This document shows, piece after piece, positions 3,013-60,571 of a DNA stretch of 64,000 nucleotides (the first letter of the stretch is position 1; every line of letters begins with the position of its first letter). Under the pieces are notes generated by a model that was not told where the DNA came from, did not search any database, and was given only the letters and a program-made list of their open reading frames with translations. Source of the DNA: Phytobacter ursingii (GTDB taxonomy: Bacteria; Pseudomonadota; Gammaproteobacteria; Enterobacterales; Enterobacteriaceae); contig CABDWT010000003.1 in assembly GCA_901456055.1 (NCBI GenBank), positions 5,352 through 69,351 of the forward strand. The letters run 5' to 3'. A program made the translations under genes and the position numbers.

Positions 3013-4350
3013 TCAGAATGTCATGCTCAACTGTGCACCGGCCCCCCAGGTTTTGTTCTCACCGACTGACCCCATTAAATCAACGTGCACACGGTTAAAT
3101 GGCGCAAAACCGACACCGCCTGTGAAGACATTGCTTTCATCACCTTTCACATCAGCACGGTAGCCAGCACGCACCGCCAGCCAACTCAGAGGACGAACCT
3201 CCGCACCGACGCCAACGAACTGTGAATTTTTCTCGCTCTTAAACCCTTTGGTTTCCGTCAGATCACCGTCAGCACTCAGTGTCAGCAGATCGTTATGCCA
3301 CGCCGCTCCAGCGGTAACCAATGGGCTGATCTGGTAGGTATCTTTGTAGTTTTTAACTTCGCCGGTTCTGCCATTGGTGATAAAAACATCTTTGGTGTCG
3401 ATATTACGCGAGACCAGGTTTTGTCCACTCAGACCGAGGGTGACGTTATCTGTTAAATCTGCCGCCAGGCCAACATCAATGTTAAAGCCCGTGTCATCCT
3501 TGCGGTATTTACTGTTGTTCCATTCGTTTTTGTCGTAATCATAAATCGACGTGGTGTAGTTATAGATCCATGACTTTTGCAGTTTTGGCGTTACGCCGAC
3601 GGAAAGAGGAACGCCGCCCACGTCGAATTGATGCGCCATTGCGATACCAAAGTCCGTAATGATAGCCGCACGACCTGATGCCGTGGAGTTAAGATTTTTT
3701 GTGATCTCGTCCGAGCCATTAGGTGAGACAACAGCACCGAGGGCAACTCCCGTGGCGACGGTATCACTGTTCTGGATGCTACGAAGGTAGGTGATATCGT
3801 TTTGATCAATATTCGAACTCACACGGGCATGCGCATAGCCTTTAGTCACAAAGGCAACAGATAACACATCGTTAGGAATAGTGACGGCGATACCGGCTCC
3901 GGCATTCGCACTCGCGGTTTTGCCATCAAGATAATCAAGCGAATCCGCAAGATCTTTTGCCGCCATCTGGAACTGATCGACAGTCCCAACGGGGTTAAGC
4001 AGCACTTCGCGCAGGGTGAGATTGTCAACGATGTCTTTGTAATAATCGATTTTATCACTGATATCATTAATTTCATCGCGCAGGTTATCCTCATCGGTTA
4101 TCTGCGCACCAACAGTCGGTAAGATGACCGTAACATTGTCTTCCGGTTTCGCCTTTGCCAGCAACGCCGGGTTAATGAATGCACCACTGCCGTAATTTGC
4201 GGAGGCAACACCTGTCCCCCCCATTGCATCATTACGTGCCTCTGACCAGGTATTTGCCGCTCCGGCTTGATTTGCCACGAAAAAGGAGACAGCGATAGCG
4301 ACCACCGAAAGTTTAAGATTGTTTTTCACAGTTATGCGTCTCGTAATCAA
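3013..4350 (-). CDS. outer-membrane beta-barrel protein, TraF-like family
   Basis: It has a signal peptide (…ANQAGA|AN) and an alternating beta-strand pattern. The C-terminus ends ...QLSMTF with a terminal Phe. Sequence is similar to chromosomal proteins commonly annotated as conjugal transfer protein TraF-like OMPs. Confidence 0.55.
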   Translation of the reverse strand: MITRRITVKNNLKLSVVAIAVSFFVANQAGAANTWSEARNDAMGGTGVASANYGSGAFINPALLAKAKPEDNVTVILPTVGAQITDEDNLRDEINDISDKIDYYKDIVDNLTLREVLLNPVGTVDQFQMAAKDLADSLDYLDGKTASANAGAGIAVTIPNDVLSVAFVTKGYAHARVSSNIDQNDITYLRSIQNSDTVATGVALGAVVSPNGSDEITKNLNSTASGRAAIITDFGIAMAHQFDVGGVPLSVGVTPKLQKSWIYNYTTSIYDYDKNEWNNSKYRKDDTGFNIDVGLAADLTDNVTLGLSGQNLVSRNIDTKDVFITNGRTGEVKNYKDTYQISPLVTAGAAWHNDLLTLSADGDLTETKGFKSEKNSQFVGVGAEVRPLSWLAVRAGYRADVKGDESNVFTGGVGFAPFNRVHVDLMGSVGENKTWGAGAQLSMTF

Positions 4351-4601
4351 ATGAGTTTATGACCCTGCTAGTTGTGACATGGACAGGGTGGCTCTATTGC
4401 TGCGAATAACATCCAAAAAACATCCTATTTCTACGGAATGTAATAAAACGTTACAGAAGATGTTGTTATATGAAGTGACCATCAATATTTATAGAAGACA
4501 CATGGCGATTGCGAAAGGTGAAGGCGCGGTCGCGATCTCGGCGTTTAGTACAGAACATGATAAAGTGGGGGCTTATGTCGCCCTTTCATGAGAGAACGCC
4601 T

Positions 4602-5117
4602 ATGGATAAGTCCACTTCGCAAGAGATGCTCGCGCAGGCCGAAAAACTGTGTGTGCAACGCAATGTGCGCCTGACTCCCCAGCGCCTCGAAGTGTTACGC
4701 CTGATGAGTCTGCAACAGGGGGCCATCAGCGCCTACGACCTGCTCGATCTCCTGCGTGAGGCAGAGCCTCAGGCCAAACCCCCAACTGTCTATCGCGCGC
4801 TGGATTTTCTTTTAGAACAAGGCTTTGTGCATAAAGTGGAGTCCACGAATAGCTATGTGCTTTGCCATCTTTTCGATCAACCGACGCACACCTCTGCGAT
4901 GTTTATCTGCGATCGTTGCGGCGTGGTAAAAGAAGAGCAGGCGGAAGGCGTGGAAGATATCATGCACGCACTGGCGGCAAAACGCGGTTTTGCGCTGCGC
5001 CATAACGTCATTGAAGCACATGGATTATGCGCTGATTGCGCCGAGGTTGAAGCGTGCCGACATCCCGGCGAATGCCATCATGACCACACGATTCAGTTGA
5101 AAAAAAAATCGCGCTAG
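4602..5117 (+). CDS. zur: zinc uptake regulator Zur
   Basis: Near-identical to E. coli Zur (MDKSTSQEMLAQAEKL...RNVRLTPQRLEVLRLM). Confidence 0.9.
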   Translation: MDKSTSQEMLAQAEKLCVQRNVRLTPQRLEVLRLMSLQQGAISAYDLLDLLREAEPQAKPPTVYRALDFLLEQGFVHKVESTNSYVLCHLFDQPTHTSAMFICDRCGVVKEEQAEGVEDIMHALAAKRGFALRHNVIEAHGLCADCAEVEACRHPGECHHDHTIQLKKKSR

Positions 5118-5131
5118 TCGCGATTTTTCTC
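5100..5131 (+). terminator. terminator after zur
   Basis: A-tract, then AATCGCG-ctagt-CGCGATT, then TTTCT. It may act bidirectionally. Confidence 0.4.
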
Positions 5132-5225: not shown

Positions 5226-5435
5226 CTACCAGCGGTAATCATTCCGCGTTTCCCAGTCCACGACTTCTTTTTCTGCCTGATCTTTGGCGTAGCCGTAACG
5301 TTCCTGAATTTTACCAACCAGTTGGTCACGTTTACCTTCGATGATGGTCATATCATCGTCAGTCAATTTACCCCACTGTTCCTTCGCTTTACCTTTGAAC
5401 TGTTTCCAGTTGCCGCTGACTTCGTCTTTATTCAT
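5226..5435 (-). CDS. yjbJ: CsbD-family stress protein YjbJ
   Basis: MNKDEVSGNWKQFKGKAKEQWGKLTDDDMT... matches E. coli YjbJ. Confidence 0.85.
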   Translation of the reverse strand: MNKDEVSGNWKQFKGKAKEQWGKLTDDDMTIIEGKRDQLVGKIQERYGYAKDQAEKEVVDWETRNDYRW

Positions 5436-5694
5436 CGTCATTTCCTCATCGTTGGTCATGAACAGCGTTATTCCTTTCGTTACGCTCTAAATATCCTGAA
5501 CGTGATTATTATTGTAGTTAAGGATAGCGACCATGAATCTTTATTCGGAATTTTTAACCATCAGAAAGGAAATTGCCGGAGAAATATGCAGACCAAACCT
5601 AAGCGAGATCAGGAGGATAACCGAGAAGTTAAAGCTTTGTCAGGAAAGGAAAGCAACCGTGACAGCGGATCTGCCGCCACGGCTCAGAAGGGTA

Positions 5695-6309
5695 TTACAG
5701 CCATTCACCATTGCGGATAACGCCAACCGCCAGGCCTTCAATGGTGAAGTTGTGCTCACGCAGGTTAACCACGATTGGGGAAAACTCACTGTTTTCAGGC
5801 AGTAGCTGCACCGTATTACCCTGTTTTTTCAGGCGCTTGACCGTGACTTCATCGTCAATACGGGCAACAACAACCTGCCCGTTACGAACATCCTGAGTTT
5901 TATGGACAGCCAGCAGGTCGCCATCCATGATGCCGATATCTTTCATCGACATACCGCTTACGCGGAGCAGGAAGTCAGCGTTAGGTTTGAAGAGAGAAGG
6001 ATCGACCTGATAGTGTCCTTCGATATGCTGTTGCGCCAACAAAGGTTCGCCAGCAGCGACACGGCCGATAAGCGGCAGCCCGATATCCTCTTCTTCTTCA
6101 AGCAACAGACGAATACCACGAGACGCACCCGATACAATCTCAATAACGCCCTTACGCGCAAGCGCTTTCAGGTGTTCCTCTGCCGCGTTTGGGGAACGGA
6201 ACCCCAACTGTTGCGCGATCTCCGCACGCGTCGGCGGCATACCTGTCTGGTTGATTCGATCGCGAATGAGATCGAACACCTCTTGCTGCCTGGCCGTTAA
6301 AGCTTTCAT
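5695..6309 (-). CDS. lexA: SOS repressor LexA
   Basis: About 97 % identical to E. coli LexA. Confidence 0.95.
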
Positions 6310-6317
6310 TCCGCCCC

Positions 6318-6354
6318 CTGGGTGTATATACAGTTATGCTGTGAGTATATACAG
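6318..6354 (-). promoter_or_regulatory. two LexA (SOS) boxes in lexA promoter
   Basis: On the minus strand: CTGTATATACTCACAG and CTGTATATACACCCAG. Both match the CTGT-N8-ACAG consensus and the spacing seen in E. coli lexA. Confidence 0.85.
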
Positions 6355-6417
6355 TTAAAGGTGATTTTGAAACCAAAATTAAGCAAAAAGCGCGGACTTA
6401 ACGCATTTCTGGAAGCC

Positions 6418-6786
6418 TTATCGAAAATAGCCCCACAGCAGAGAAAACCAGGTAAACAGTGCCAGAAGAATGGCCATTAATACTGCCGCAGACCCCATGT
6501 CCTTCGCACGTCCTGAGAGTTCATGAAATTCAGACCCAATACGGTCAACCACCGCTTCAATCGCACTATTGAGGATTTCCACTATCATCACCAATACAAC
6601 AGAACCAATCAGCAGAACACGCGTAATAGCGTCAACATCCACAAAAGACGCAATGATGATAGCAATAATGACCGCAACACCTTCCTGACGAAAAGCCGCT
6701 TCGTTAATCCACGCTGCGCGCACCCCTTTCCATGAATAGCCTGCCGCTTTAATGATGCGGGTAATTCCAGTGGTATTGTTGGCCAT
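6418..6786 (-). CDS. dgkA: diacylglycerol kinase
   Basis: MANNTTGITRIIKAAGYSWKG... matches E. coli DgkA (122 aa). Confidence 0.9.
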   Translation of the reverse strand: MANNTTGITRIIKAAGYSWKGVRAAWINEAAFRQEGVAVIIAIIIASFVDVDAITRVLLIGSVVLVMIVEILNSAIEAVVDRIGSEFHELSGRAKDMGSAAVLMAILLALFTWFSLLWGYFR

Positions 6787-6916
6787 GAAAAACAACCTTT
6801 TTATGTAATGAACGTCAATGTCTATGTAAGCTTATAGAGGTAGAAAAGAAATTCTGCGGACTTTCTGATATTCTTGCCGCGCAATGGCATTATTAACCAG
6901 AGGCTTTACATCGTTT

Positions 6917-9337
6917 ATGTCCGGCTGGCCACGAATTTACTACAAATTACTAAATTTACCATTAAGCGTCCTGGTAAAAAGCAAGTCTATCCCGGCGGAA
7001 CCCGCCCAGGAATTAGGACTCGATACGTCACGCCCTATTATGTACGTTTTGCCTTATAATTCGAAGGCAGACTTGCTTACCTTGCGCGCTCAGTGTCTGG
7101 CACACGATTTGCCCGACCCCCTCGAACCGCTTGAAATCGATGGAGCGGAGCTGCCGCGTTATATCTTTATTCACGGCGGACCGCGCGTCTTTACCTGGTA
7201 CACGCCTAAAGAAGAGTCGATCAAGCTGTTCCATGACTACCTCGATCTGCACCGCAGCCATCCCGATCTGGATGTTCAGATGGTGCCTGTATCGATGATG
7301 TTCGGCCGTTCTCCAGGTCGCGAAAAGGGTGAAGTCAACCCGCCGCTGCGTATGCTAAACGGTATTCAGAAATTTTTCGCGATCTCATGGCTTGGCCGCG
7401 ATAGCTTTGTGCGTTTCTCGCCGCCGGTTTCGCTGCGTCGTATGGCAACCGAGCACGGGACAGACAAAACCATTGCGCAAAAACTGGCACGCGTAGCGCG
7501 TATGCACTTCGCCCGTCAGCGCCTGGCCGCAGTGGGGCCGCGTTTGCCTGCCCGTCAGGACCTGTTTAATAAGCTGCTCTCCTCCAAAGCCATCGCCCGT
7601 GCCGTCGAAGACGAAGCGCGCAGCAAGAAAATCTCCCATGATAAAGCACAACAAAACGCAATTGCGCTGATGGAAGAGATTGCGGCGAACTTCTCGTATG
7701 AGATGATCCGTCTGTCAGACCGTATCCTCAGCTTTACCTGGAACCGTCTGTATCAGGGCATTAATGTGCATAACGCGGAACGTGTTCGTCAGCTCGCCCA
7801 TGATGGTCATGAAATTGTCTATGTGCCCTGCCATCGCAGTCATATGGACTATTTGTTGCTCTCCTACGTGCTCTATCATCAGGGGCTGGTACCACCGCAT
7901 ATCGCTGCCGGCATCAACCTGAACTTCTGGCCGGCGGGTCCCATTTTCCGTCGTCTGGGCGCGTTCTTTATTCGCCGTACGTTTAAAGGCAATAAGCTCT
8001 ATTCGACGGTTTTCCGCGAGTATCTGGGTGAATTGTTTAACCGCGGCTATTCAGTGGAATACTTTGTGGAAGGTGGGCGTTCTCGTACCGGCCGTCTGTT
8101 GGATCCGAAGACCGGCACGCTCTCGATGACGATTCAGGCCATGCTTCGTGGGGGCACGCGTCCGATCACGCTGGTGCCCATCTACATTGGCTATGAGCAC
8201 GTCATGGAAGTGGGCACCTACGCCAAAGAGCTGCGCGGCGCGACGAAAGAGAAAGAAGGTTTTGCCCAGATGGTACGCGGTTTAAGCAAGCTGCGTAATC
8301 TCGGTCAGGGCTACGTCAACTTTGGCGAGCCCATTCCGCTGATGAACTATCTGAATCATCGCGTACCAGAATGGCGCGAGTCCATCGATCCCATCGAGGC
8401 TGTCCGTCCTGCCTGGCTGACGCCAACGGTGAATGCCATTGCTGCTGATCTGATGGTGCGTATTAATAATGCCGGTGCGGCAAACGCCATGAACCTCTGT
8501 TGTACTGCGCTTCTGGCCTCACGTCAGCGTTCACTGACCCGCGAACAGCTCACCGAGCAACTGAACTGTTACCTCAACCTGATGCGCAATGTGCCCTATG
8601 CTGCCGACACAACGGTGCCCACCGTCAGTGCGGACGCGCTTATTGAGCACGCCCTGCAGATGAACAAGTTTGAGGTAGAGAAAGACACGATTGGCGACAT
8701 CATCATTCTGCCGCGCGAGCAGGCGGTGCTGATGACGTACTATCGCAACAACATTGCGCATATGCTGATGTTGCCATCGCTGATGGCGGCCATTATTACC
8801 CAGCATCGTCATATCTCTCAGGACGAAATGCTGCGCCATGTTGAACTGCTCTACCCGATGCTGAAAGCCGAGCTGTTCTTGCGCTGGGAAAAAGAGGAAC
8901 TGGCCGGCGTACTGGAGAGCCTCGCACAGGAATTACTGCGCCAGGGGCTGATCACCATGAAGGATGGCCAGCTCTATATCAATCCGGTACATTCCCGTAC
9001 TCTGCAATTGCTGGCGGCTGGCGCGCGCGAAACGCTGCAACGTTATGCCATCACGTTCTGGTTGCTGAGCGCCAATCCGGCGATGAACCGCAGTACACTG
9101 GAGAAAGAGAGCCGTACGCTGGCGCAACGTCTGTCAGTCCTGCACGGCATCAATGCGCCGGAATTCTTCGACAAGGCGGTTTTCAGTACTCTGGTGCTGA
9201 CGCTGCGTGATGAAGGGTATATCAGCGATACCGGCGATGCCGAGCCCGAGCAGACACTGGCGGTGTATCAGCTGTTAGCTGAGCTGATTACTTCTGATGT
9301 GCGTTTGACTATCGAGAGCGCAACGCAGGCGGAGTGA
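6917..9337 (+). CDS. plsB: glycerol-3-phosphate acyltransferase
   Basis: [17 protein letters not shown]... is about 90 % identical to E. coli PlsB. It is divergent from dgkA. Confidence 0.95.
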
Positions 9338-25294: not shown

Positions 25295-25616
25295 ATCAAT
25301 TTCCCTTCATTGAATGAATGGAGATTTGCCTGAAAATAAACAGGCGAGAACGAGTATACACAACTAAAGCAGGCTATTTGCCGAATGGGAAACGCAGCGG
25401 GAAGTTTTAAGAAAATTGGATAAAATCGATAAATTGCAGATATTAATTTAAAATAAAAATTTTGTATTTCATACAGTTACAAATATTTCAGCAATAAGGA
25501 AGTATACGTAACATCTGAAAATAACACTGAGGAATTAACTGGATATTCTGTTTTTTCAGAATAACCTCATAATGAAGAATTATGTCGACGACGGAACAAC
25601 AAGAATTATCCGATAA

Positions 25617-25644
25617 TAAAATGCCGACGTTATGTCGGCATTTT
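25617..25644 (-). terminator. pgi terminator (symmetric hairpin, bidirectional)
   Basis: AAAATGCCGACG-ttat-GTCGGCATTTT. Confidence 0.55.
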
Positions 25645-25682
25645 AATTTACCTATTTCGCTCACCCTTATCGCTGAACGATA

Positions 25683-27552: not shown

Positions 27553-27880
27553 GGGCGCTACCTGCGTGCGCGCGGGCCAGAAGAGGAGCGTTACCCAGGT
27601 ACGGTGTTGGAAGAGCCAATCTGAAGAAAACACCTGAGGGGGAGTAACGCCGAGGTGGTGAATTGCATGGCGGCATTCATCATCGGCTACAGGGGCTGAA
27701 TCCCTTGAGTTGTCACCAGAAACGTTCGCAGTCGGGCGTTTCACAAGTGGTGGAGCACTTCTGGGTGTAATCGTAGTTGTCTTTTGCTCTGCGCCTACCC
27801 CTTTTCGCTCTTCCCTTGTGCCATGGCTGAATAATTTTGTCTGACGTTATACGCCAGGCTTCCCTGACACGAGGTTATAA
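27553..27880 (+). ncRNA. lysine riboswitch (L-box) in lysC leader
   Basis: GGCCAGAAGAGGAGCGTTACCCAGGTACGGTGTTGGAAGAGCCA...CACCTGAGGGGG...GGGCTGAATCCC...GTGGTGGAGCACTTCTGGGTG is colinear with the E. coli lysC leader aptamer. It lies immediately 5' of the lysC ATG. Confidence 0.85.
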
Positions 27881-29244: not shown

Positions 29245-29258
29245 TCGCAGGCGTTGTT

Positions 29259-29393
29259 TCCCCGGTGGCGCTGCGCTTACCGGGGCTACGGGCTGTAGCC
29301 CGGATAAGGCGTTTACGCCGCCATTCGGGGCAACCGTAATTTACCAGAGCAACCAGCCGTAGCCCGGATAAGGCGTTTACGCCGCATCCGGGA
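29259..29393. repeat. REP/BIME elements (about 3 REPs)
   Basis: CCCCGGTGGCGCTGCGCTTACCGGGGCTAC.. followed by two GTAGCCCGGATAAGGCGTTTACGCCGC units. Confidence 0.8.
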
Positions 29394-29410
29394 AGCCTTG
29401 CTTGCCTAAC

Positions 29411-30202
29411 CTACATCTGCCCCATGACCGTCCGGAACAGCAACGCGTCCAACGTTCTGACGTCGCCTTCCCGGCTTTCCGGTAACGTGGGGGGAAGGGT
29501 TCCCCTTTCGATCTCGGCCGCGATAAACGCGTGTAAGCGTGGCAGACGCGCGCCGTATTGCGCTTCCCCTGCACACTGCTTACGTGCCAGTAAATCATCG
29601 ATTTCCAGACGCAATTGCGCATCCAGTTCGCTTCCGGCCAACAGTTCGGCAAAGCGCATCGGCGGTACGCCTTTTCCCGCTTCCACCCAACGCACCGCCA
29701 GTAACGGGCGCAGCACATAAAAGTATTTCTTTAACCGCACCTCATCACCCTGCAAATACTGATGGAAGTTTCTGCGGGCCATGGAGTAGTAATGCCAGCG
29801 CGCCCGCACGGCAGAAAACCATTTCGGCATCTCCGCCTTAAGCGCACCGACGGTGGCATCGTCTTGCTGATAGACCACTGGCGAATCCAGCCACTCGATC
29901 AGCGTTGGGTTTGCGCTTTTTAGCAAACCTAACGCTTTACGCCACTCCCAGCCGCTCACGTCCAGCTCATCATCGATGGGCAGTTCAATCACATCACGCG
30001 GCGCCTCTACCCGCAGATACCACTGCGGCGGATGCACATATAAAAAACGCACATCATAGTCGCTGTCCGGTGAGGCAAAACCCCAGCCACGGCTGCCGGA
30101 TTCGCAGGCATACAGCACTCTGACGCCGTAACGCTGCTCCACCTCTTTTAATTGCTGCCGCACGCGTTCACGCATTGCGGCATCCACTCCGCTATCAGCC
30201 AT
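29411..30202 (-). CDS. Pol-beta-superfamily nucleotidyltransferase (RtcB-associated)
   Basis: NTase signature GSRGWGFASPDSDYDVRF (GS-x9-D-x-D) near the N-terminus. The protein is 263 aa. Its start lies 5 bp downstream of the rtcB stop. Confidence 0.65.
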   Translation of the reverse strand: MADSGVDAAMRERVRQQLKEVEQRYGVRVLYACESGSRGWGFASPDSDYDVRFLYVHPPQWYLRVEAPRDVIELPIDDELDVSGWEWRKALGLLKSANPTLIEWLDSPVVYQQDDATVGALKAEMPKWFSAVRARWHYYSMARRNFHQYLQGDEVRLKKYFYVLRPLLAVRWVEAGKGVPPMRFAELLAGSELDAQLRLEIDDLLARKQCAGEAQYGARLPRLHAFIAAEIERGTLPPTLPESREGDVRTLDALLFRTVMGQM

Positions 30203-30207
30203 CTCAT

Positions 30208-31434
30208 TTATCCTTTTACACAGACCACCTGACGTAAGGTGTGGACAATCTCCACCAGCGACGCCTGCGCCGCCATCACCGCGTCGATATCTTTATAGGC
30301 CATCGGAATTTCATCAATAACGTCGCTGTCTTTACGACACTCAACGTGAGCGGTCGCCCGAATCTGGTCATCAACCGTAAAGCGCTTTTTCGCCGCCGTA
30401 CGACTCATCGTGCGCCCTGCGCCGTGGCTACAAGAGCAGAAGCTCTCTTCATTTCCCAATCCACGTACGATAAAGCTTTTCGCCCCCATCGAACCGGGAA
30501 TAATCCCCATCTGGCCCTTCTGCGCCGAAACCGCGCCTTTACGCGTCACCAGCACCTCTTCGCCAAAATGGGTCTCTTTTTGCACGTAGTTATGGTGGCA
30601 ATTCACCGCCTCCTGCTGGGTCAGAAACGGTTTTGTCACGATACGCGACAGCGCCGCCAGCACGCGCGACATCATCACTTCCCGGTTATGACGGGCAAAG
30701 TCCTGGGCCCACGACACGGCTTCCATATAGTCGTCATAGTGCTTACTCCCCTCCTTGAAATAGGCCAGGTTTTTATCCGGCAGGTTGGCAATATGCTGCT
30801 GCATGTCCTGTTGGGCCAGCGTGATAAACAGCGTACCAATGGCATTACCCACGCCGCGCGAACCGCTATGTAACATCACCCATACACGTTGCTGCTCATC
30901 CAGGCAGACCTCAATAAAATGGTTGCCCGTACCCAGCGTTCCCAGGTGCTGATGATTATTGGTTTTCAATAGCTGCGGATAGTTATCCGTCAAGCGCTTA
31001 AACCGTGCCGCCAGCATTGTCCAGTGGTTATCCACTTCCTGCGGGGGCGTTTCCCACGCCCCTTTATCCCGGACGGAACGTGTGCTGGTACGCCCATGCG
31101 GCACCGCCTGTTCGATTGCGCTGCGAAGCCCGCTCAGGTTATCCGGTAAATCGCTTGCCACCAGCGAGGTGCGCACGGCGATCATCCCACAACCAATATC
31201 CACGCCAACCGCCGCCGGGATAATGGCCCCTTTGGTCGGGATCACGCTGCCGATGGTGGAACCTTTACCGAGATGTACATCGGGCATTACCGCCAGATGC
31301 TGAAAAATAAACGGCATCTTCGCGGTATTCTGCAACTGTTCACGCGCCTCTGGTTCTACCGGCACCCCGTGAGTCCACATTTTTATCGGCGCACTGTTCT
31401 GCGCCGTCAGCAGTTGAAATTCGTTATGCTGCAT
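30208..31434 (-). CDS. rtcB: RNA-splicing ligase RtcB (3'-phosphate/5'-OH RNA ligase)
   Basis: 408 aa with long identical blocks to E. coli RtcB (PFIFQH.AVMPDVHLGKGSTIGSVIPTKGAIIPAAVGVDIGCGM..., GNEESFCSCSHGAGR, CRKD..VIDEIPMAYKDIDAVMAAQ). Confidence 0.9.
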   Translation of the reverse strand: MQHNEFQLLTAQNSAPIKMWTHGVPVEPEAREQLQNTAKMPFIFQHLAVMPDVHLGKGSTIGSVIPTKGAIIPAAVGVDIGCGMIAVRTSLVASDLPDNLSGLRSAIEQAVPHGRTSTRSVRDKGAWETPPQEVDNHWTMLAARFKRLTDNYPQLLKTNNHQHLGTLGTGNHFIEVCLDEQQRVWVMLHSGSRGVGNAIGTLFITLAQQDMQQHIANLPDKNLAYFKEGSKHYDDYMEAVSWAQDFARHNREVMMSRVLAALSRIVTKPFLTQQEAVNCHHNYVQKETHFGEEVLVTRKGAVSAQKGQMGIIPGSMGAKSFIVRGLGNEESFCSCSHGAGRTMSRTAAKKRFTVDDQIRATAHVECRKDSDVIDEIPMAYKDIDAVMAAQASLVEIVHTLRQVVCVKG

Positions 31435-31438
31435 TTGA

Positions 31439-32563
31439 TTATCCTTTAATACTCACCAGTCCATTCAGGACGTTATCGAGGCCACCAAATACCGAGATTT
31501 TATCGATACGTTCAGCCACTTTTTCTAGCGTTTCCAGCTCTTTTAAGCGCAACGCTACCGGGTTGTTTTCCATGACTTTCGCGGTATTAAGCAATGAGCG
31601 GGTTGCCGCTGTCTCTTCACGCCGACGAATCACGTTCGCCTGCGCCGATTTTTCCGCTTCCACCAGCTTCGCCAGAATGGTTTTCATATCGCCCGGCAAC
31701 ACGATATCCCGCACACCCAGCGACGCGACATCCATGCCAAAGGGAGCCATACGTGTTTTTACCTGAGCACTGACTACCTCATCGATGATTTGCTTGTCTT
31801 CAAGCAGTTCGTCCAGCGTCCGGGTTCCCACCGCTTCACGCAGGGCAAACTGCAGTTCGCGATACAGGTGATCCAACGGTTTGGTTAACTGGCTGAATGC
31901 CTGTAACACATCGCTGTATTGCCAGTTCGCCCCCAGGTTGATGCGCAGGTTCACTTTGTCTTTGGTCAGAATTTCCTGGCCGGACACTTCCATCAATTGC
32001 AAACGCGTATCGACAACGTCTGCATCAACCAGATGGTTCACTTTCCAGTAAGCGCTCAATCCCGGCGGCAACAAAGGTTGTGTTACACCATCGATTTTTA
32101 CTACACCGACGTGCCATGCCGCGACATTAACCGCCAGTATGGCATCCCGGCCTTTAACAGCTGCGCCGCTACGTGGCTGCAATACGGCATTCATGATGCT
32201 CTCAGGTACACGCACATCCCGGGTATCGATCAACACCACGCTCAGGCTACCGTCCTGCCAGAACAGGCGGCGTGACGCTGGCGGGATAATTTCCACCAGG
32301 ATGCCGTCACGGTAGAGCGCAGCCACCTCATGCCCGGCGGTATCGACGCTCAGGCAGTACGCCTCGACCCACTCAGGTCTGAAACGGCGCAGATAATTCG
32401 CCAGCTCTGCCGACACATCGCTGCCGTTGAGCTCAACGACCATGACCTCTTGCTTATTAAACCAGGAAAGACGGTGCTCTCCTGCCTCAAGAATTTTTGT
32501 GTAATCGCCTGCTTTTACCAGCAGGCCCACTTGTCCCTGGCGGAGAGTGATTTTTTTATTCAT
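31439..32563 (-). CDS. SPFH/band-7 domain protein (soluble, no N-terminal TM)
   Basis: The C-terminal half has stomatin/HflC-like SPFH features (…DIVLPGDMKTILAKLVEAEKSAQANVIRRREETAATRSLLNTAKVMENNPVALRLKELETLEKVAERI…). An AAGGAAG ribosome-binding site is present. It is the first gene of the rtcB operon. Confidence 0.65.
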   Translation of the reverse strand: MNKKITLRQGQVGLLVKAGDYTKILEAGEHRLSWFNKQEVMVVELNGSDVSAELANYLRRFRPEWVEAYCLSVDTAGHEVAALYRDGILVEIIPPASRRLFWQDGSLSVVLIDTRDVRVPESIMNAVLQPRSGAAVKGRDAILAVNVAAWHVGVVKIDGVTQPLLPPGLSAYWKVNHLVDADVVDTRLQLMEVSGQEILTKDKVNLRINLGANWQYSDVLQAFSQLTKPLDHLYRELQFALREAVGTRTLDELLEDKQIIDEVVSAQVKTRMAPFGMDVASLGVRDIVLPGDMKTILAKLVEAEKSAQANVIRRREETAATRSLLNTAKVMENNPVALRLKELETLEKVAERIDKISVFGGLDNVLNGLVSIKG

Positions 32564-32858
32564 TTGATCTTCCTTAAATTTTCACGTACCGGCGCGAATG
32601 CAGGATCGGAGCCGGAGGGAAACAGACCACCACTGCCAGCCTGTTTTGCCTGCGACCCGGAGCCCTTATCGGCGCCGGTTCATTGCCATCGCTAACCACC
32701 CGACGGCGCGTTTACGAACACAACCAGTGTTCACCGGAAAGGTGAGTTGGGAATCGAACCCTCATGGTGTCTCTCGGCTGACAGAACGCCCCGCGGATAA
32801 CGTCTTACCGTTCCGGGTGCGCTGGCGGGGCATAATCCCCTGCGTGCTCAACGTCGTG
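32564..32858 (-). ncRNA. candidate structured leader / Y-RNA-like ncRNA with tRNA T-loop-like motif
   Basis: The approximately 295-nt transcript 5' region runs between the sigma-54 promoter and the SPFH start codon. The minus strand contains GGGTTCGATTCCC (32749-32761), a tRNA T-arm mimic. GC-rich long-range stems are present (ATGCCCCGC…GCGGGGCGT and TCACC-tttcc-GGTGA). Confidence 0.3.
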
Positions 32859-32870
32859 ACATATCAGGTA

Positions 32871-32888
32871 TTGCCAGAAGCGTGCCAG
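32871..32888 (-). promoter_or_regulatory. sigma-54 (-24/-12) promoter of SPFH-rtcB-NTase operon
   Basis: The minus strand reads CTGGCACGCTTCTGGCAAT, which gives GG and GC 12 nt apart and fits TGGCAC-N5-TTGCA with one mismatch. It is oriented toward rtcB and is divergent from rtcR. Confidence 0.55.
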
Positions 32889-33021
32889 GTTGGAAGAAGT
32901 GGAAGATTAAATTTTAATTTACTGATATTTAAGAAATTAAATTTTCATCTCTTTGTTCACTTGCTGGTATCCCGGTAATTTTTTTATATTTATTTATCGT
33001 TATTTATCTTTAAGGATAAAA

Positions 33022-34602
33022 ATGCAAAAGCGCAGAGTGGTGATAGGCGTACTGGGAACAGTGTTGGATAAACGCGGCAAGCGGGCAAATCGCTTTCGTA
33101 AATGGCGGCCAACCGTTGGGTTATGCCAGCAGCCGGACTTTCCGGTTGATCGGCTGGAGTTGCTCCATCAGCCGCGCGATGAAGGCATGGCCCAACAGCT
33201 GGCGGAAGATATCGCACTGCTTTCACCGCAAACCACCGTACGCCCTCATCCGGTAAATATTCGCGATCCGTGGGATTTTGAAGAGGTGTATGCCGCGTTC
33301 CTCGATTTCGCCAGCCACTATGATTTCGATACAGAAAACGAAGAGTATCTGGTGCATATCACCACCGGCACGCACGTGGCGCAGATCTGCTGGTTTTTGC
33401 TGACAGAGGCTCGCTATCTGCCCGCCAGCCTGCTGCAAACCAGCCCGGCGCCGAAAGGGGCTTCGGAGGAAGATATTGCCGCCGGCGTTTGCTCGGTTAT
33501 CGATCTCGATTTAAGCCGCTATGCAACCTTAACCAGCCGCTTTCAACGCGAACAGCAACAGTCGGTTTCGCTGCTCAAAGCCGGTATCGATACGCGCAAC
33601 GCAACGTTTAATAAGCTTATCGATCAAATTGAACGGGTAGCCTTGCGCTCCACGGCACCGATTCTGTTGACCGGGCCCACCGGGGCGGGTAAATCCTTCC
33701 TGGCAAAACGTATTTTCCAGCTACGCCAGTCGCGCCATCGTGTGGCGGGTAAACTGGTGGCGGTAAACTGCGCCACGTTGCGAGGCGATAACGCTATGTC
33801 GACATTGTTTGGCCATGTGAAAGGGGCGTTTACCGGGGCGCTAACGCCACGAATGGGGCTGCTGCGCGAAGCCGATGGCGGGGTGCTTTTTCTGGATGAA
33901 ATTGCGGAGCTGGGCCTGGATGAGCAAGCGATGCTGCTGAAAGCCATTGAAGAAAAAACGTTCTTCCCATTTGGCTCGGATAAAGAGGTCCACAGTGATT
34001 TTCAGCTTATTGCCGGTACACACCGCGACATGCGCCAGTGGGTGGAGGAAGGGAAATTCCGTGAGGATCTCTATGCGCGTATCAATATGTGGACGTTTGC
34101 CCTGCCGGGGCTTGCTGAAAGACGGGAAGATATTGCGCCGAATATTGAATTCGAACTCCAGCGCTTTAGCGCCGAAGCCCAGACTCAGATCCGTTTTGAC
34201 AAAGACGCGCGTGAACGTTATCTGGCATTTGCCTGTTCCGGACAGGCACAGTGGCGCGGTAACTTTCGTGAACTGAGTTCCTCGATTGCCCGTATGGCGA
34301 CGCTGGCCGAACAGGGGCGTATCACTCTGGCTAATGCCGAAGAAGAAATTGCCCGTTTGCAGCACGCCTGGCAGACACCATCTTCACTCCCCCCTTTAGC
34401 AGAGGAAATCGATCTGTTTGAGCAACGTCAACTGGAAACGGTACTGGAGGTATGTCGCCGTCACCACTCTCTTTCCGATGCCGGGCGCGAACTGTTTGCC
34501 GTTTCGCGCTTGAAAAAAGCCAGGCCGAATGATGCTGACCGTCTGCGTAAATACCTCGCGCGCTTCGGGCTGAGCTGGGAAAACATCCGCCCTGCTACAT
34601 GA
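33022..34602 (+). CDS. rtcR: sigma-54-dependent transcriptional activator RtcR (CARF + AAA+ + HTH)
   Basis: Colinear with E. coli RtcR. Shared blocks include KWRPT..LCQQ, HITTGTHVAQICWFLL.EARYLPA, Walker A GPTGAGKSFLA, GAFTGA, LFLDEI.ELG.DEQAMLLKAIEEKTF.PFGSD and a C-terminal DADRLRKYLARFGL.WE. Confidence 0.85.
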   Translation: MQKRRVVIGVLGTVLDKRGKRANRFRKWRPTVGLCQQPDFPVDRLELLHQPRDEGMAQQLAEDIALLSPQTTVRPHPVNIRDPWDFEEVYAAFLDFASHYDFDTENEEYLVHITTGTHVAQICWFLLTEARYLPASLLQTSPAPKGASEEDIAAGVCSVIDLDLSRYATLTSRFQREQQQSVSLLKAGIDTRNATFNKLIDQIERVALRSTAPILLTGPTGAGKSFLAKRIFQLRQSRHRVAGKLVAVNCATLRGDNAMSTLFGHVKGAFTGALTPRMGLLREADGGVLFLDEIAELGLDEQAMLLKAIEEKTFFPFGSDKEVHSDFQLIAGTHRDMRQWVEEGKFREDLYARINMWTFALPGLAERREDIAPNIEFELQRFSAEAQTQIRFDKDARERYLAFACSGQAQWRGNFRELSSSIARMATLAEQGRITLANAEEEIARLQHAWQTPSSLPPLAEEIDLFEQRQLETVLEVCRRHHSLSDAGRELFAVSRLKKARPNDADRLRKYLARFGLSWENIRPAT

Positions 34603-34660
34603 ATCCTCTTCATCTTAATTTGTTTGAATAAAATTTCCTCACGCGATAAACAGTACTGAC

Positions 34661-34688
34661 GGCCGGGCTCGACCCCGGCCTTTTTTAT
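34661..34688 (+). terminator. rtcR terminator
   Basis: GGCCGGG-ctcgacc-CCGGCC followed by TTTTTTAT. Confidence 0.55.
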
Positions 34689-34724
34689 AACAAAACACAA
34701 CACCACGCGTTAAAGGAAAACACT

Positions 34725-35666
34725 ATGCTCGCTGTACTCACCCGGCTGTTCCCGTTATGGGCGCTGCTGCTCTCTGTGCTTGCTTATTACACGCCCTCTA
34801 CCTTCACGCCCATTGGCCCGTGGGTCACCACCCTACTCATGTTGATTATGTTCGGCATGGGCGTACACCTGAAAATTGACGATTTTAAGCGTGTACTTTC
34901 CCGCCCGGCCCCGGTTGCCGCAGGCATTTTCCTGCACTACCTGGTGATGCCGCTTGCCGCCTGGCTGCTGGCAATGATTTTCAAAATGCCGCCGGATCTT
35001 TCTGCCGGGATGGTGCTGGTCGGTAGCGTGGCCAGCGGTACGGCTTCCAACGTCATGATCTACCTGGCGAAAGGCGACGTGGCGCTCTCAGTGACCATTT
35101 CGTCTGTCTCAACGTTGGTTGGCGTAGTCGCCACACCGCTGCTGACGCGCCTCTATGTTGACGCCCACATTCAGGTGGATGTGATGGGTATGCTGCTGAG
35201 CATATTGCAGATTGTGGTGATTCCGATTGGACTGGGTTTGATTATTCATCACCTGTTCCCGCACGTGGTGAAGGTGGTGGAGCCGTATCTGCCCGCGTTT
35301 TCGATGGTCTGTATCCTGGCGATCATCAGCGCCGTGGTGGCGGGTTCCGCTTCACACATTGCGTCCGTAGGCCTGGTGGTGATTGTCGCGGTGATGTTGC
35401 ACAACAGTATCGGTCTGCTGGGTGGCTACTGGGGTGGGCGTCTGTTCGGTTTCGACGAATCCACCTGCCGCACACTGGCTATCGAAGTGGGGATGCAGAA
35501 CTCCGGCCTTGCTGCCGCACTCGGTAAACTTTACTTCTCGCCGCTGGCTGCCCTGCCAGGCGCGCTTTTCTCGGTCTGGCATAATCTGTCCGGCTCACTG
35601 CTGGCGGGTTACTGGTCCGGTAAGCCTATTGCAGACAAACCACGCGAAACAGTAAAAGAAAACTGA
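34725..35666 (+). CDS. bile acid:sodium symporter (BASS) family transporter
   Basis: 313 aa with about 9-10 predicted TM segments, typical of the BASS/YocS-type fold. Confidence 0.7.
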
Positions 35667-35695
35667 CAGGCCGTATCAGGTTTGGCTTTGACGTT

Positions 35696-35731
35696 CCCCC
35701 GGTGGCGCTAACGCTTACCGGGGCTACGAGT
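35696..35731. repeat. REP element
   Basis: CCCCCGGTGGCGCTAACGCTTACCGGGGCTACGAG. Confidence 0.75.
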
Positions 35732-35806
35732 CAGTACGGTTTATTTATTGTGAGACGACACGCCTGTACCGTACACTGAGACCATCGGCTTACTGAGGGC
35801 ACCGAC

Positions 35807-55279: not shown

Positions 55280-55399
55280 ATGCCTGGCAGTTCCCTACTC
55301 TCACATGGGGAGACCCCACACTACCATCGGCGCTACGGCGTTTCACTTCTGAGTTCGGCATGGGGTCAGGTGGGACCACCGCGCTAAAGCCGCCAGGCA
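55280..55399 (-). rRNA. rrf: 5S ribosomal RNA
   Basis: Reverse complement matches E. coli 5S (TGCCTGGCGGC...GCCAGGCAT), 120 nt. Confidence 0.95.
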
Positions 55400-55592
55400 A
55401 ATTCTGTGCTCTGTCCTGTGTCTTTTGTGCTGATACTGCGTTGGCTGCTCTCGTAAAGTCAGTCACATACCTCAGTATGCTCCTTCCTTTCCTTCGCTGG
55501 CCGCCTTGTCTCAGCGCAAAATCCTTCGGACTCTGAATCTAAGCTGAATATTGTTCGTCTTCTCAATTCCGCCAAAACATCTTCGGCGTTGT

Positions 55593-58494
<2,902 letters not shown>

Positions 58495-58700
58495 TCACAA
58501 CCCGAAGATGTTTCTTTCGATTCATCCTCGCGCTGTAAAAATTTGAGAGACTCGAACACACCGTCATCTGTTCTTATTACGGAGAACAGACACTGTGTGT
58601 CGTTTCAATTTTCAGCTTGATCCAGATTTTTAAAGAGCAAAACTTCGCAGTGCACCTTTTCAGGTTCACTCTGAAGTTTTCTTGTGTTCGCAGTAAATGA

Positions 58701-58776
58701 TGGTGGAGCTATGCGGGATCGAACCGCAGACCTCCTGCGTGCAAAGCAGGCGCTCTCCCAGCTGAGCTATAGCCCC
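58701..58776 (-). tRNA. tRNA-Ala (UGC), 16S-23S spacer
   Basis: Reverse complement equals GGGGCTATAGCTCAGCTGGGAGAGCGCCTGCTTTGCACGCAGGAGGTCTGCGGTTCGATCCCGCATAGCTCCACCA. Confidence 0.95.
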
Positions 58777-58882
58777 ATCGTGGTCAAATCTCGTTAACCG
58801 TAATTTTCCTGAGACAAGGCGTGGAATAACGAAGCATACTCAGGTATGCGGGTTATTTCACAACGCAGTATTCAGGAAAATT

Positions 58883-58959
<77 letters not shown>

Positions 58960-59029
58960 GCAGAGATTTTTTACTGCTGTATTTCATCAGACAATCTGTG
59001 TGAGCACTGCAAAGGCAGGTTCTTTAAGG

Positions 59030-60571
<1,542 letters not shown>

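Follow-up and report, generated by a model that had tools for sequence, protein, structure and literature searches.

A predicted RtcR-controlled RNA-repair operon of Phytobacter ursingii with an SPFH gene and a conserved structured leader RNA

What kind of RNA-repair system lies between lysC and yjbD in Phytobacter ursingii, where genes for an SPFH/Band-7 protein and a nucleotidyltransferase (NTase) accompany that of the RNA ligase RtcB? The DNA analysed (the window) is a stretch of 64,000 nucleotides (nt), positions 5,352 to 69,351 of contig CABDWT010000003.1 in assembly GCA_901456055.1. An initial annotation, made from the letters alone, had described in it an RtcR-controlled RNA-repair operon with an SPFH protein and a Pol-beta-type NTase instead of RtcA and Ro, and the sequence supports this description. 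Based on our analysis, the operon is probably an RtcR/sigma-54-controlled Band-7/SPFH and RlaP repair system in which a structured leader RNA and an oligomer of the SPFH protein would act as scaffold or cofactor. The regulator, the promoter, the RNA structure, the gene coupling and the enzyme families are supported at the sequence level, and the RNA-SPFH module is suggested by co-occurrence and by fold.

Genes and promoter of the operon

The operon, its regulator and their control elements occupy the following positions of the window:

29411-30202, minus strand: rlaP, RlaP-family (PF10127) Pol-beta nucleotidyltransferase, 263 amino acids (aa), last gene of the operon (Pfam E=1.6e-96)
30208-31434, minus strand: rtcB, 3'-phosphate/5'-OH RNA ligase, 408 aa (PF01139, E=1.2e-133, full length)
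31439-32563, minus strand: SPFH/Band-7 ('slipin') protein, 374 aa (PF01145, E=2e-24 over residues 147-317)
32872-32887, minus strand: predicted sigma-54 (-24/-12) promoter TGGCACGCTTCTGGCA, predicted start at about 32860
32985-33021: TTATCC / GATAAA / CGATA repeats beside the rtcR start, candidate RtcR enhancer sites (upstream activating sequences, UAS), from conservation
33022-34602, plus strand: rtcR, sigma-54 enhancer-binding protein with CARF-type RtcR, AAA+ and HTH domains, 526 aa (NF038308, 827 bits)

The SPFH, RtcB and Pol-beta NTase domains in one operon, and the divergent RtcR, were all recovered at full length (PF01145, PF01139, PF10127 and NF038308). Every open reading frame (ORF) is complete and uninterrupted, identities between genera are 75-99% at the amino-acid level, and the minus-strand gaps measure 4 nt between SPFH and RtcB and 5 nt between RtcB and RlaP, as originally reported. 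The Pfam match of RlaP spans profile positions 1-248 of 249, a GS...DSDYD NTase motif can be seen in its translation, and the protein also matches the PHROG 14344 nucleotidyltransferase (E=1.5e-110). It is 79-82% identical to the copies at the corresponding loci of Citrobacter, Klebsiella and Superficieibacter, and a sequence search of the PDB gave no match. RtcR scores well above the NF038308 equivalog cut-off of 650 bits, additionally matches PF06956, PF00158 and the PADLOC model RtcR--CARF_AAA_HTH (E=3e-262), and shares 62% identity with E. coli RtcR. Its translation most likely starts at ATG 33022, which gives the 526 aa called in relatives, and not at TTG 32953 as first proposed.

RtcB retains the HGAGR motif and is 72% identical to E. 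coli RtcB over its full length. It is closer (76-81%) to the RtcB proteins of SPFH-type operons in Providencia, Pseudomonas and beta-proteobacteria, which suggests that the RtcB proteins associated with SPFH form a lineage of their own or that the module has spread laterally as a whole.

The reported lack of rtcA and rsr was borne out. No RtcA homologue was detected within the 64-kb window by tblastn (nothing better than E=1.7) or in the loci of enterobacterial relatives, and no TROVE/Ro domain was found among the operon ORFs with Pfam. The possibility raised at the outset that the SPFH and NTase ORFs were mis-called fragments of rsr or rtcA was checked by profile searches, in which no ORF was such a fragment. 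The leader region gave no Y-RNA-type Rfam match at E<=10, and neither an NfeD nor a protease gene is present in the window locus.

The predicted promoter agrees with the sigma-54 promoter that had been placed before the three genes. It is the sole match to the sigma-54 element in the window and is not significant alone, 0.23 matches being expected by chance and 20 of 100 shuffles holding one. It gains weight from its place in the divergent gap, from conservation between genera and from its likeness to the promoter of E. coli rtcBA (TGGCACGACGGTTGCAAT). Of 13 enterobacterial genera, 11 have the element unchanged, as does Providencia, while those of Pluralibacter and Mangrovibacter differ by 1-3 spacer substitutions and the Pseudomonas and beta-proteobacterial loci carry sigma-54-type variants at the same place. 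The UAS-like blocks are conserved in the 13 enterobacterial genera, in Pseudomonas and in E. coli (GATATCCTTATAAAAGACGATA), and RtcR would bind at these repeats.

The neighbourhood survey that had been proposed for Band-7, RtcB and NTase co-occurrence was run on 80 loci, fetched with an SPFH profile out of more than 596 relatives and drawn from beta- and gamma-proteobacteria and cyanobacteria. These loci encode full-length SPFH homologues with 43-77% identity; RtcB lies downstream in 41 and RlaP in 24, a divergent RtcR lies upstream in 37, and RtcA occurs in 18. The same gene order with rtcA added was found in 18 beta- and gamma-proteobacterial loci. Conversely, rtcB is missing from six enterobacterial loci (L007-L010, L061 and L091; Superficieibacter, Klebsiella oxytoca, Klebsiella sp., Lonsdalea, Mangrovibacter and Pluralibacter), where the site is the same and RtcR, the leader RNA, SPFH and RlaP are retained. 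Their remaining ORFs are intact, with SPFH at 6001-7125 or 4001-5128 of the fetched sequences and RlaP starting 5-50 nt downstream.

Further variation was seen around the ligase gene. Small genes lie between SPFH and rtcB in about 20 beta- and gamma-proteobacterial loci (for example L012:7163-7561 and L039:7239-7712) and encode a treble-clef zinc-finger protein (PF13451, zf_Tbcl) or a PNKP-type HAD phosphatase (PF25109). In one locus (L019), a gene for an FtsH-like AAA/M41 protease lies downstream of rtcB.

The structured leader RNA

Between the predicted transcription start and the SPFH gene, the transcript would fold into the following elements:

32564-32860, minus strand: structured leader and candidate non-coding RNA, about 297 nt, seven helices (covariation in alignment A3)
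32777-32860, minus strand: 5' three-way-junction domain, 84 nt from the predicted +1 (covariance model R2)
32848-32852/32777-32781, minus strand: helix H1
32837-32843/32825-32830, minus strand: helix H2, a hairpin
32812-32824/32782-32797, minus strand: helix H3
32749-32761, minus strand: T-arm-like hairpin GGGTTCGATTCCC with the tRNA T-loop motif (conservation)
32732-32744, minus strand: small hairpin CACC-UUUCC-GGUG with a CUUCC-type loop (read directly in the alignments)
32685-32707, minus strand: hairpin H5 (GCCGTCG ... CGATGGC), 7 of 7 pairs with compensatory change, 84.6% of cells paired
32590-32677, minus strand: 3' rod domain, 23 pairs, 11 with compensatory change
32668-32677/32590-32599, minus strand: rod helix H6
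32645-32664/32603-32622, minus strand: rod helix H7

Alignment A3 comprises 13 enterobacterial genera, the window and 12 others, and its consensus fold was obtained with RNAalifold. The fold holds 55 pairs in seven helices, of which 29 show compensatory double changes. Two controls were used, namely 500 shuffles of the alignment and pairing partners slid by 1-3 columns. The shuffles gave 15 +/- 2.1 covarying pairs and none of the 500 reached 29, the slid partners gave 3-10, and 95.1% of the leader cells are paired compared with 85.6% in the shuffles. The SPFH Shine-Dalgarno sequence, AAGGAAG, stands at 32569-32575, 3' of the leader helices. Folded as a single sequence, the whole leader is not significant (z=-1.4) and only the 3' rod is (z=-3.9); the structure emerges clearly only from comparative data. 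The stretch that had been passed over as an empty spacer between promoter and SPFH gene is thus a conserved structured RNA of 297 nt. The initial annotation had taken the lack of Y RNAs as the lack of an RNA component, whereas the operon opens with a structured RNA related to band-7-associated tRNA-like RNAs.

The 5' domain reaches furthest. Covariance model R2, iterated once and run over 88 sources totalling 1.04 Mb at E<=0.05, found it in 46 of the 88, in gamma- and beta-proteobacteria with and without RtcR. Every match lies on the SPFH strand, 282-645 nt upstream of the SPFH start codon, and within the sequence searched the domain occurs solely beside SPFH genes. Compensatory changes support 19 of its 22 pairs across 45 distinct sequences, a value that none of 500 shuffles matched; this alignment is model-fitted and leans to structure, and the slid controls reach only 5-9. 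The domain accompanies 25 of 37 loci with RtcR and 13 of 40 without, and it is at least as widespread as the tRNA-like element. The leader is thus retained where RtcR is lacking (the 13 loci) and, in the rtcB-less enterobacterial loci, where RtcB is lacking. Scans with Rfam 15 (7 kb at E<=1 and 341 nt at E<=10) returned chance-level matches, and the leader, in relatives as in the window, is covered by no family. The sole Rfam match among the relatives' leaders is that of the second tRNA-like unit of beta-proteobacterial and Pseudomonas leaders to RF00005.

A tRNA-like module follows the 5' domain. The core of the T hairpin, GGTTC-A-TCC, is invariant in 13 of 13 genera, seven of the 12 other genera share the full 13-mer of the window, and, of 77 loci, 62 have the motif GGTTCGANTCC no more than 800 nt upstream of the SPFH gene and on its strand, where chance would give about 0.001 per locus. 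In the window leader, ARAGORN called no tRNA and the Rfam tRNA search was also negative. In relatives, both programs call one or two tRNA-like genes at the position of the T hairpin; at most non-enterobacterial loci, ARAGORN calls one or two in tandem, with odd or variable anticodons. A minihelix, consisting of an acceptor-like stem GCGAA/UUCGC (with compensatory variants GCAAA/UUUGC and GAUA/UAUC) and a 5-bp T arm, is kept in Cronobacter, Franconibacter, Siccibacter, Superficieibacter, Mangrovibacter and Lonsdalea. In the clade of the window, both acceptor-like strands have been deleted together (A3 columns 112-128 and 148-153) and a 3-bp T hairpin remains, from which the band-7-associated tRNA-like RNA (b7a-tRNA) appears to be vestigial in this genome.

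The remaining hairpins vary in letters and keep their pairing. Stem letters of the hairpin at 32732-32744 differ among Cronobacter, Franconibacter, Citrobacter, Klebsiella, Mangrovibacter and Lonsdalea with pairing kept, and pairing is also kept in beta-proteobacterial leaders; as the alignment register is not the same in all sequences, this hairpin was judged by direct reading and does not enter the formal pair counts. Two candidate pairings or mimics were discarded: an inverted repeat (32734-32746/32804-32816) considered as an acceptor-like stem conflicts with the covariation-supported H3, and the H5 loop is no D-loop mimic, its GG not being conserved.

Several relatives depart from this layout. 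The leaders of L018 and L045 (about 5579-5990; Pseudomonas entomophila and P. soli) keep the 5' three-way junction and have an unrelated GC-rich hairpin in place of both tRNA-like units. Some SPFH loci hold whole tRNA arrays: large same-strand arrays lie just upstream of SPFH in the gamma- and beta-proteobacterial loci L084 (1530-5667), L019, L035, L037, L063, L077 and L072, and that of L084, whose 25 tRNAs serve most amino acids, is reminiscent of the trn operon that stress induces in Anabaena. The cyanobacterial homologues (44-46% identity; L059, L062, L066, L074, L078-L082, L085 and L086) are often preceded by tandem tRNA-Met-like genes at a distance of 1-2 kb and followed by a gene for a DUF4238 protein; no RtcR, RtcB or 5' RNA domain was found near them.

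The SPFH protein and the genomic setting

The AlphaFold model of the SPFH protein (pLDDT 84.9, from a 33-sequence alignment) predicts two N-terminal beta repeats (residues 1-69 and 70-128), a stomatin-type domain (about 142-288) and C-terminal helices (291-355), with a long helix of about 65 residues. Each beta repeat is weakly similar to the start of an SPFH domain, and the closest folds are stomatin, HflK/C and QmcA. The model predicts a stomatin-like core within an overall layout resembling MVP (major vault protein), although the Pfam Vault profile does not match the window protein. No transmembrane segment was detected (maximum KD19 1.45) and the N-terminus is formed by the beta repeats, so the protein is predicted to be soluble. 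All solved SPFH proteins form ring or dome oligomers.

A subset of SPFH proteins of about 505-560 aa carries an extra N-terminal copy of the beta-repeat region (L011:6001-7521, L045:6001-7521, L029:3304-4869 and L062/L066/L073/L079); a second tblastn segment of 26-34% identity marks them, and the representatives P0122, P0125 and P0128 show two matched stretches. The bacterial MVP homologues of a preprint (10.1101/872010) were considered as the same proteins and belong to a different family.

The locus is flanked by the following features:

29260-29286 (about): palindrome in the lysC/rlaP gap (read directly)
29298-29334 and 29362-29397: copies of repetitive extragenic palindromic (REP) elements in the convergent lysC/rlaP gap, given for context only (partial naRNA4/REP matches)
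34661-34688, plus strand: intrinsic terminator behind rtcR, a 7-bp all-GC stem (34661-34680) followed by TTTTTT
34725-35666, plus strand: SBF-family (bile acid:sodium symporter family) transporter gene between rtcR and yjbD

The locus had been regarded as a REP-bounded island between lysC and yjbD where K-12 has nothing. Its absence from E. coli holds: 5426 of 5426 complete genomes lack it, and yjbD stands directly after lysC in E. coli. In the window, the SBF gene also lies before yjbD. Since E. coli lysC abuts yjbD and the SBF gene is extra as well, the additional DNA spans about 29245 to 35800. As to the flanks, the terminator after rtcR and the REPs on the lysC/rlaP side were found as described, and there is no REP on the rtcR side. 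The lysC/rlaP gap of relatives is only 22-90 nt, and the REPs are thus a local feature of the window genome rather than the boundaries of an island.

The order pgi-lysC-[rlaP-rtcB-SPFH]-leader-rtcR-SBF-yjbD-rluF is common to Phytobacter, Yokenella, Cronobacter, Franconibacter, Siccibacter and Citrobacter, and Pluralibacter has it without rtcB. Synteny of the locus extends to at least 12 further enterobacterial genera, and the window SPFH protein is 99% identical to proteins of Kluyvera intermedia. As the syntenic site is the same across genera, the locus appears to be chromosomal and vertically inherited, with no recent or mobile insertion.

The SBF-like gene, which E. coli lacks between lysC and yjbD, keeps its syntenic place by the rtc-type locus in every enterobacterial relative examined. 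Elsewhere in the window we noted a lysine riboswitch upstream of lysC (27573-27768, plus strand; Rfam RF00168, 95.7 bits), the small RNA STnc430 downstream of pgi (25491-25652, plus strand) and a complete rRNA operon (5S, 23S, two tRNAs, 16S) at 55282-60571 on the minus strand, with a StyR-44 element at 58502-58635.

Relation to known systems and possible functions

The gene arrangement had been presented as a different and uncharacterized architecture, yet its counterpart is on record. The rtc operon of P. aeruginosa consists of PA4582 (SPFH, 'PaFlo8', PA14_60630), PA4583 (rtcB), PA4584 and PA4585 (rtcA), with RtcR (PA4581) divergent (PMC8619066, PMC13086221), and PA4584 belongs to the RlaP family. 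It has in common with the window the divergent RtcR, the sigma-54 promoter and the order SPFH-RtcB-RlaP, a comparison based on papers and on loci of other Pseudomonas species in the fetched set. In those loci (L012, L013, L018, L020 and L045), SPFH is likewise preceded by the 5' RNA domain. In contrast to the P. aeruginosa type, the window lacks rtcA, has its tRNA-like units cut to the T hairpin and possesses an Enterobacterales-specific 3' rod. As the window RtcB is nearer to those of SPFH-type operons than to E. coli RtcB, the locus is best assigned, by sequence comparison, to the P. aeruginosa type minus rtcA and not to an altered E. coli rtcBA. It is an rtcA-less form of the SPFH-RtcB-RlaP type already described.

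The components have likewise been noticed before. As cited in 10.1101/312249 and PMC12776372, Burroughs and Aravind described in 2016 Band-7 proteins, a tRNA-like non-coding RNA and RlaP together with RtcB, and framed such systems as responses to ribotoxins; the name RlaP is also theirs (NAR 2016, as cited in PMC12776372). The window shares with these systems the Band-7 gene beside rtcB and RlaP in the operon. Of a tRNA-like RNA next to the Band-7 gene it has the T hairpin, a putative vestige; no tRNA is called in the window, and the tRNA-like element sits inside a much larger conserved RNA. Moreover, RlaP has since been characterized biochemically, adding one or two nucleoside monophosphates to the 3'-OH of damaged RNAs (PMC12776372, 2025). 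The term uncharacterized therefore no longer fits the repair system as it was first put forward.

The E. coli rtcR-rtcBA operon, situated between malT and glpR, has a similar promoter and similar UAS-like repeats besides its related RtcR and RtcB. It differs in having rtcA and in lacking SPFH and RlaP, and its rtcR-rtcB gap of 188 nt, with a leader of about 45 nt, gave no match to the 5' RNA domain model. The Salmonella rsr-yrlBA-rtcBA operon resembles the window in its RtcR-controlled RtcB, in having a non-enzymatic RNA-binding scaffold of its own and in operon RNAs with a tRNA-like (T-arm) domain. The window, however, has no TROVE/Ro protein or Y-RNA-type Rfam match, and its RNA is placed 5' of the first ORF, not between genes. 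Likeness to the eukaryotic vault (MVP, vault RNA and TEP1) is confined to predicted fold; the window protein has two repeats where MVP has nine, and stomatin and HflK outscore MVP over its SPFH core.

A parallel from Anabaena concerns regulation. In the TrcR regulon, a 'slipin family protein' (alr0739-alr0740) is co-derepressed with rtcB and the trn tRNA operon in translational stress (PMC10272220). Slipin, RtcB and extra tRNAs are thus co-induced, and alr0740 is the putative counterpart of the window SPFH protein; the cyanobacterial homologues, with their upstream tRNA-like genes, fit the same theme. The regulator is another one, neither sigma-54 nor RtcR takes part, and the genes are dispersed. 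By analogy, this co-derepression offers an independent hint of a link between RNA and SPFH.

The mechanism that we favour would begin with damage to RNA, for example the nicking of tRNAs, that produces 2',3'-cyclic-phosphate ends and activates RtcR through its CARF domain; RtcR of Salmonella and E. coli is activated in this way by tRNA fragments with such ends (PMC7790460). RtcR would then drive the predicted sigma-54 promoter, giving a transcript that starts with the multi-helix RNA and continues into the three tightly coupled genes. If family-level biochemistry applies, RtcB would reseal 3'-phosphate or cyclic-phosphate ends to 5'-OH ends, and RlaP would add one or two nucleotides to over-trimmed RNA 3' ends. 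The soluble SPFH protein may form a ring or dome oligomer and, with the leader RNA, a scaffold or cofactor for repair, analogous to Ro60 and Y RNA in the Salmonella operon. We infer such a module because the RNA stays with SPFH where RtcR or RtcB is lacking and is absent from the SPFH-less E. coli operon. By its distribution, the RNA-SPFH pair appears to be the invariant core, persisting without RtcR, RtcA or even RtcB.

Several observations weigh against this mechanism. RlaP leaves a 3'-OH, which RtcB cannot ligate, and RtcA, which the window operon lacks, is reported to be required (PMC7790460, PMC9650030) for RtcR activation in Salmonella and E. coli. Deletion of the P. aeruginosa SPFH gene (paFlo8) had no phenotype in general assays, among which there was no RNA-damaging stress. 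The tRNA-like module has shrunk to a 3-bp T hairpin, and a tRNA-mimicry function may consequently have been lost in the clade of the window. Additionally, model R3 of the 3' rod found only 13 Enterobacterales, which are its training set; at this sensitivity the rod appears to be lineage-specific, and an nhmmer profile of the enterobacterial leader did not reach beyond Enterobacterales either.

The main alternative, itself compatible with the RNA-SPFH scaffold, is that the leader is no stable cofactor and acts in cis on the stability or translation of the SPFH-rtcB-rlaP mRNA, as an attenuator, a sensor of RNA damage or of tRNA, or a decoy for anticodon nucleases. We consider it possible without favouring it. 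The RNA lies between promoter and Shine-Dalgarno sequence and is not followed by a strong terminator, about 15 nt separate the end of the 3' rod from the Shine-Dalgarno sequence, tRNA-like modules are natural targets for nucleases that damage tRNAs, and variation of the 3' domain by lineage is common for leaders. However, no alternative terminator/antiterminator or Shine-Dalgarno-sequestering pairing is predicted, and the RNA tracks the SPFH gene even where regulator and ligase are different or absent. The tRNA-like units of relatives are complete enough for tRNA calls, one of them with CCA encoded, and this points to separate RNAs released by RNase P/Z-type processing. A role in anti-phage or inter-bacterial conflict, as abortive infection or counter-ribotoxin immunity instead of housekeeping repair, is unlikely. 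It would accord with the CARF domain and PADLOC listing of RtcR, with the frequency of the RlaP and RtcB families in phages (PHROG matches; T4 NrdC.11), with the patchy distribution among genera and with the ribotoxin-response framing of Burroughs and Aravind. The anti-phage reading of the initial annotation nonetheless found no direct support: SPFH, RtcB and RlaP match no PADLOC model, and the neighbours (pgi, lysC, the transporter gene, yjbD and rluF), syntenic across genera, form neither a defence island nor a mobile element.

Two further explanations are unlikely given the lack of a membrane anchor, the intact ORFs and the compensatory helix changes. That the SPFH protein scaffolds or regulates a protease or membrane complex, as is usual, with an incidental link to RNA, seems quite improbable to us. 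Its nearest folds, stomatin, HflK/C and QmcA, and the protease gene of L019 would agree with such a role. Yet it lacks a transmembrane segment and an NfeD partner, is tightly coupled to RtcB across the 4-nt gap and has the structured RNA upstream in 46 loci, and a protease neighbour is rare. The notion that the locus is a decaying remnant of a Pseudomonas-type operon with little present function we regard as very improbable. Some observations would accord with it: rtcA is absent, the minihelix is co-deleted in the clade of the window, rtcB is gone in Pluralibacter, Klebsiella, Superficieibacter, Mangrovibacter and Lonsdalea, and E. coli has no such locus. The reading frames that remain are nonetheless full length and similar between genera (the 75-99% given above), the RNA helices are kept by compensatory substitutions and the promoter is the same in 11 of the 13 genera.

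In summary, the operon as first described is unremarkable, since the literature already covers its gene content, and the interest lies in the SPFH protein and the RNA associated with it, neither of which has an experimentally assigned role. The leader RNA far exceeds a 'tRNA-like gene' in size and in conservation. We tentatively suggest that it could represent an unrecognized, widespread RNA family of about 300 nt and an obligate partner of a soluble MVP-like SPFH protein, the two forming a vault-like or Ro/Y-like ribonucleoprotein that organizes RNA repair and for which RtcB is dispensable. Such a family may combine the 5' three-way junction with a tRNA-like minihelix or T arm and a lineage-specific rod. 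The pairing of RNA and SPFH provides a handle on why RNA-repair operons carry a cage-forming scaffold protein together with a structured RNA.

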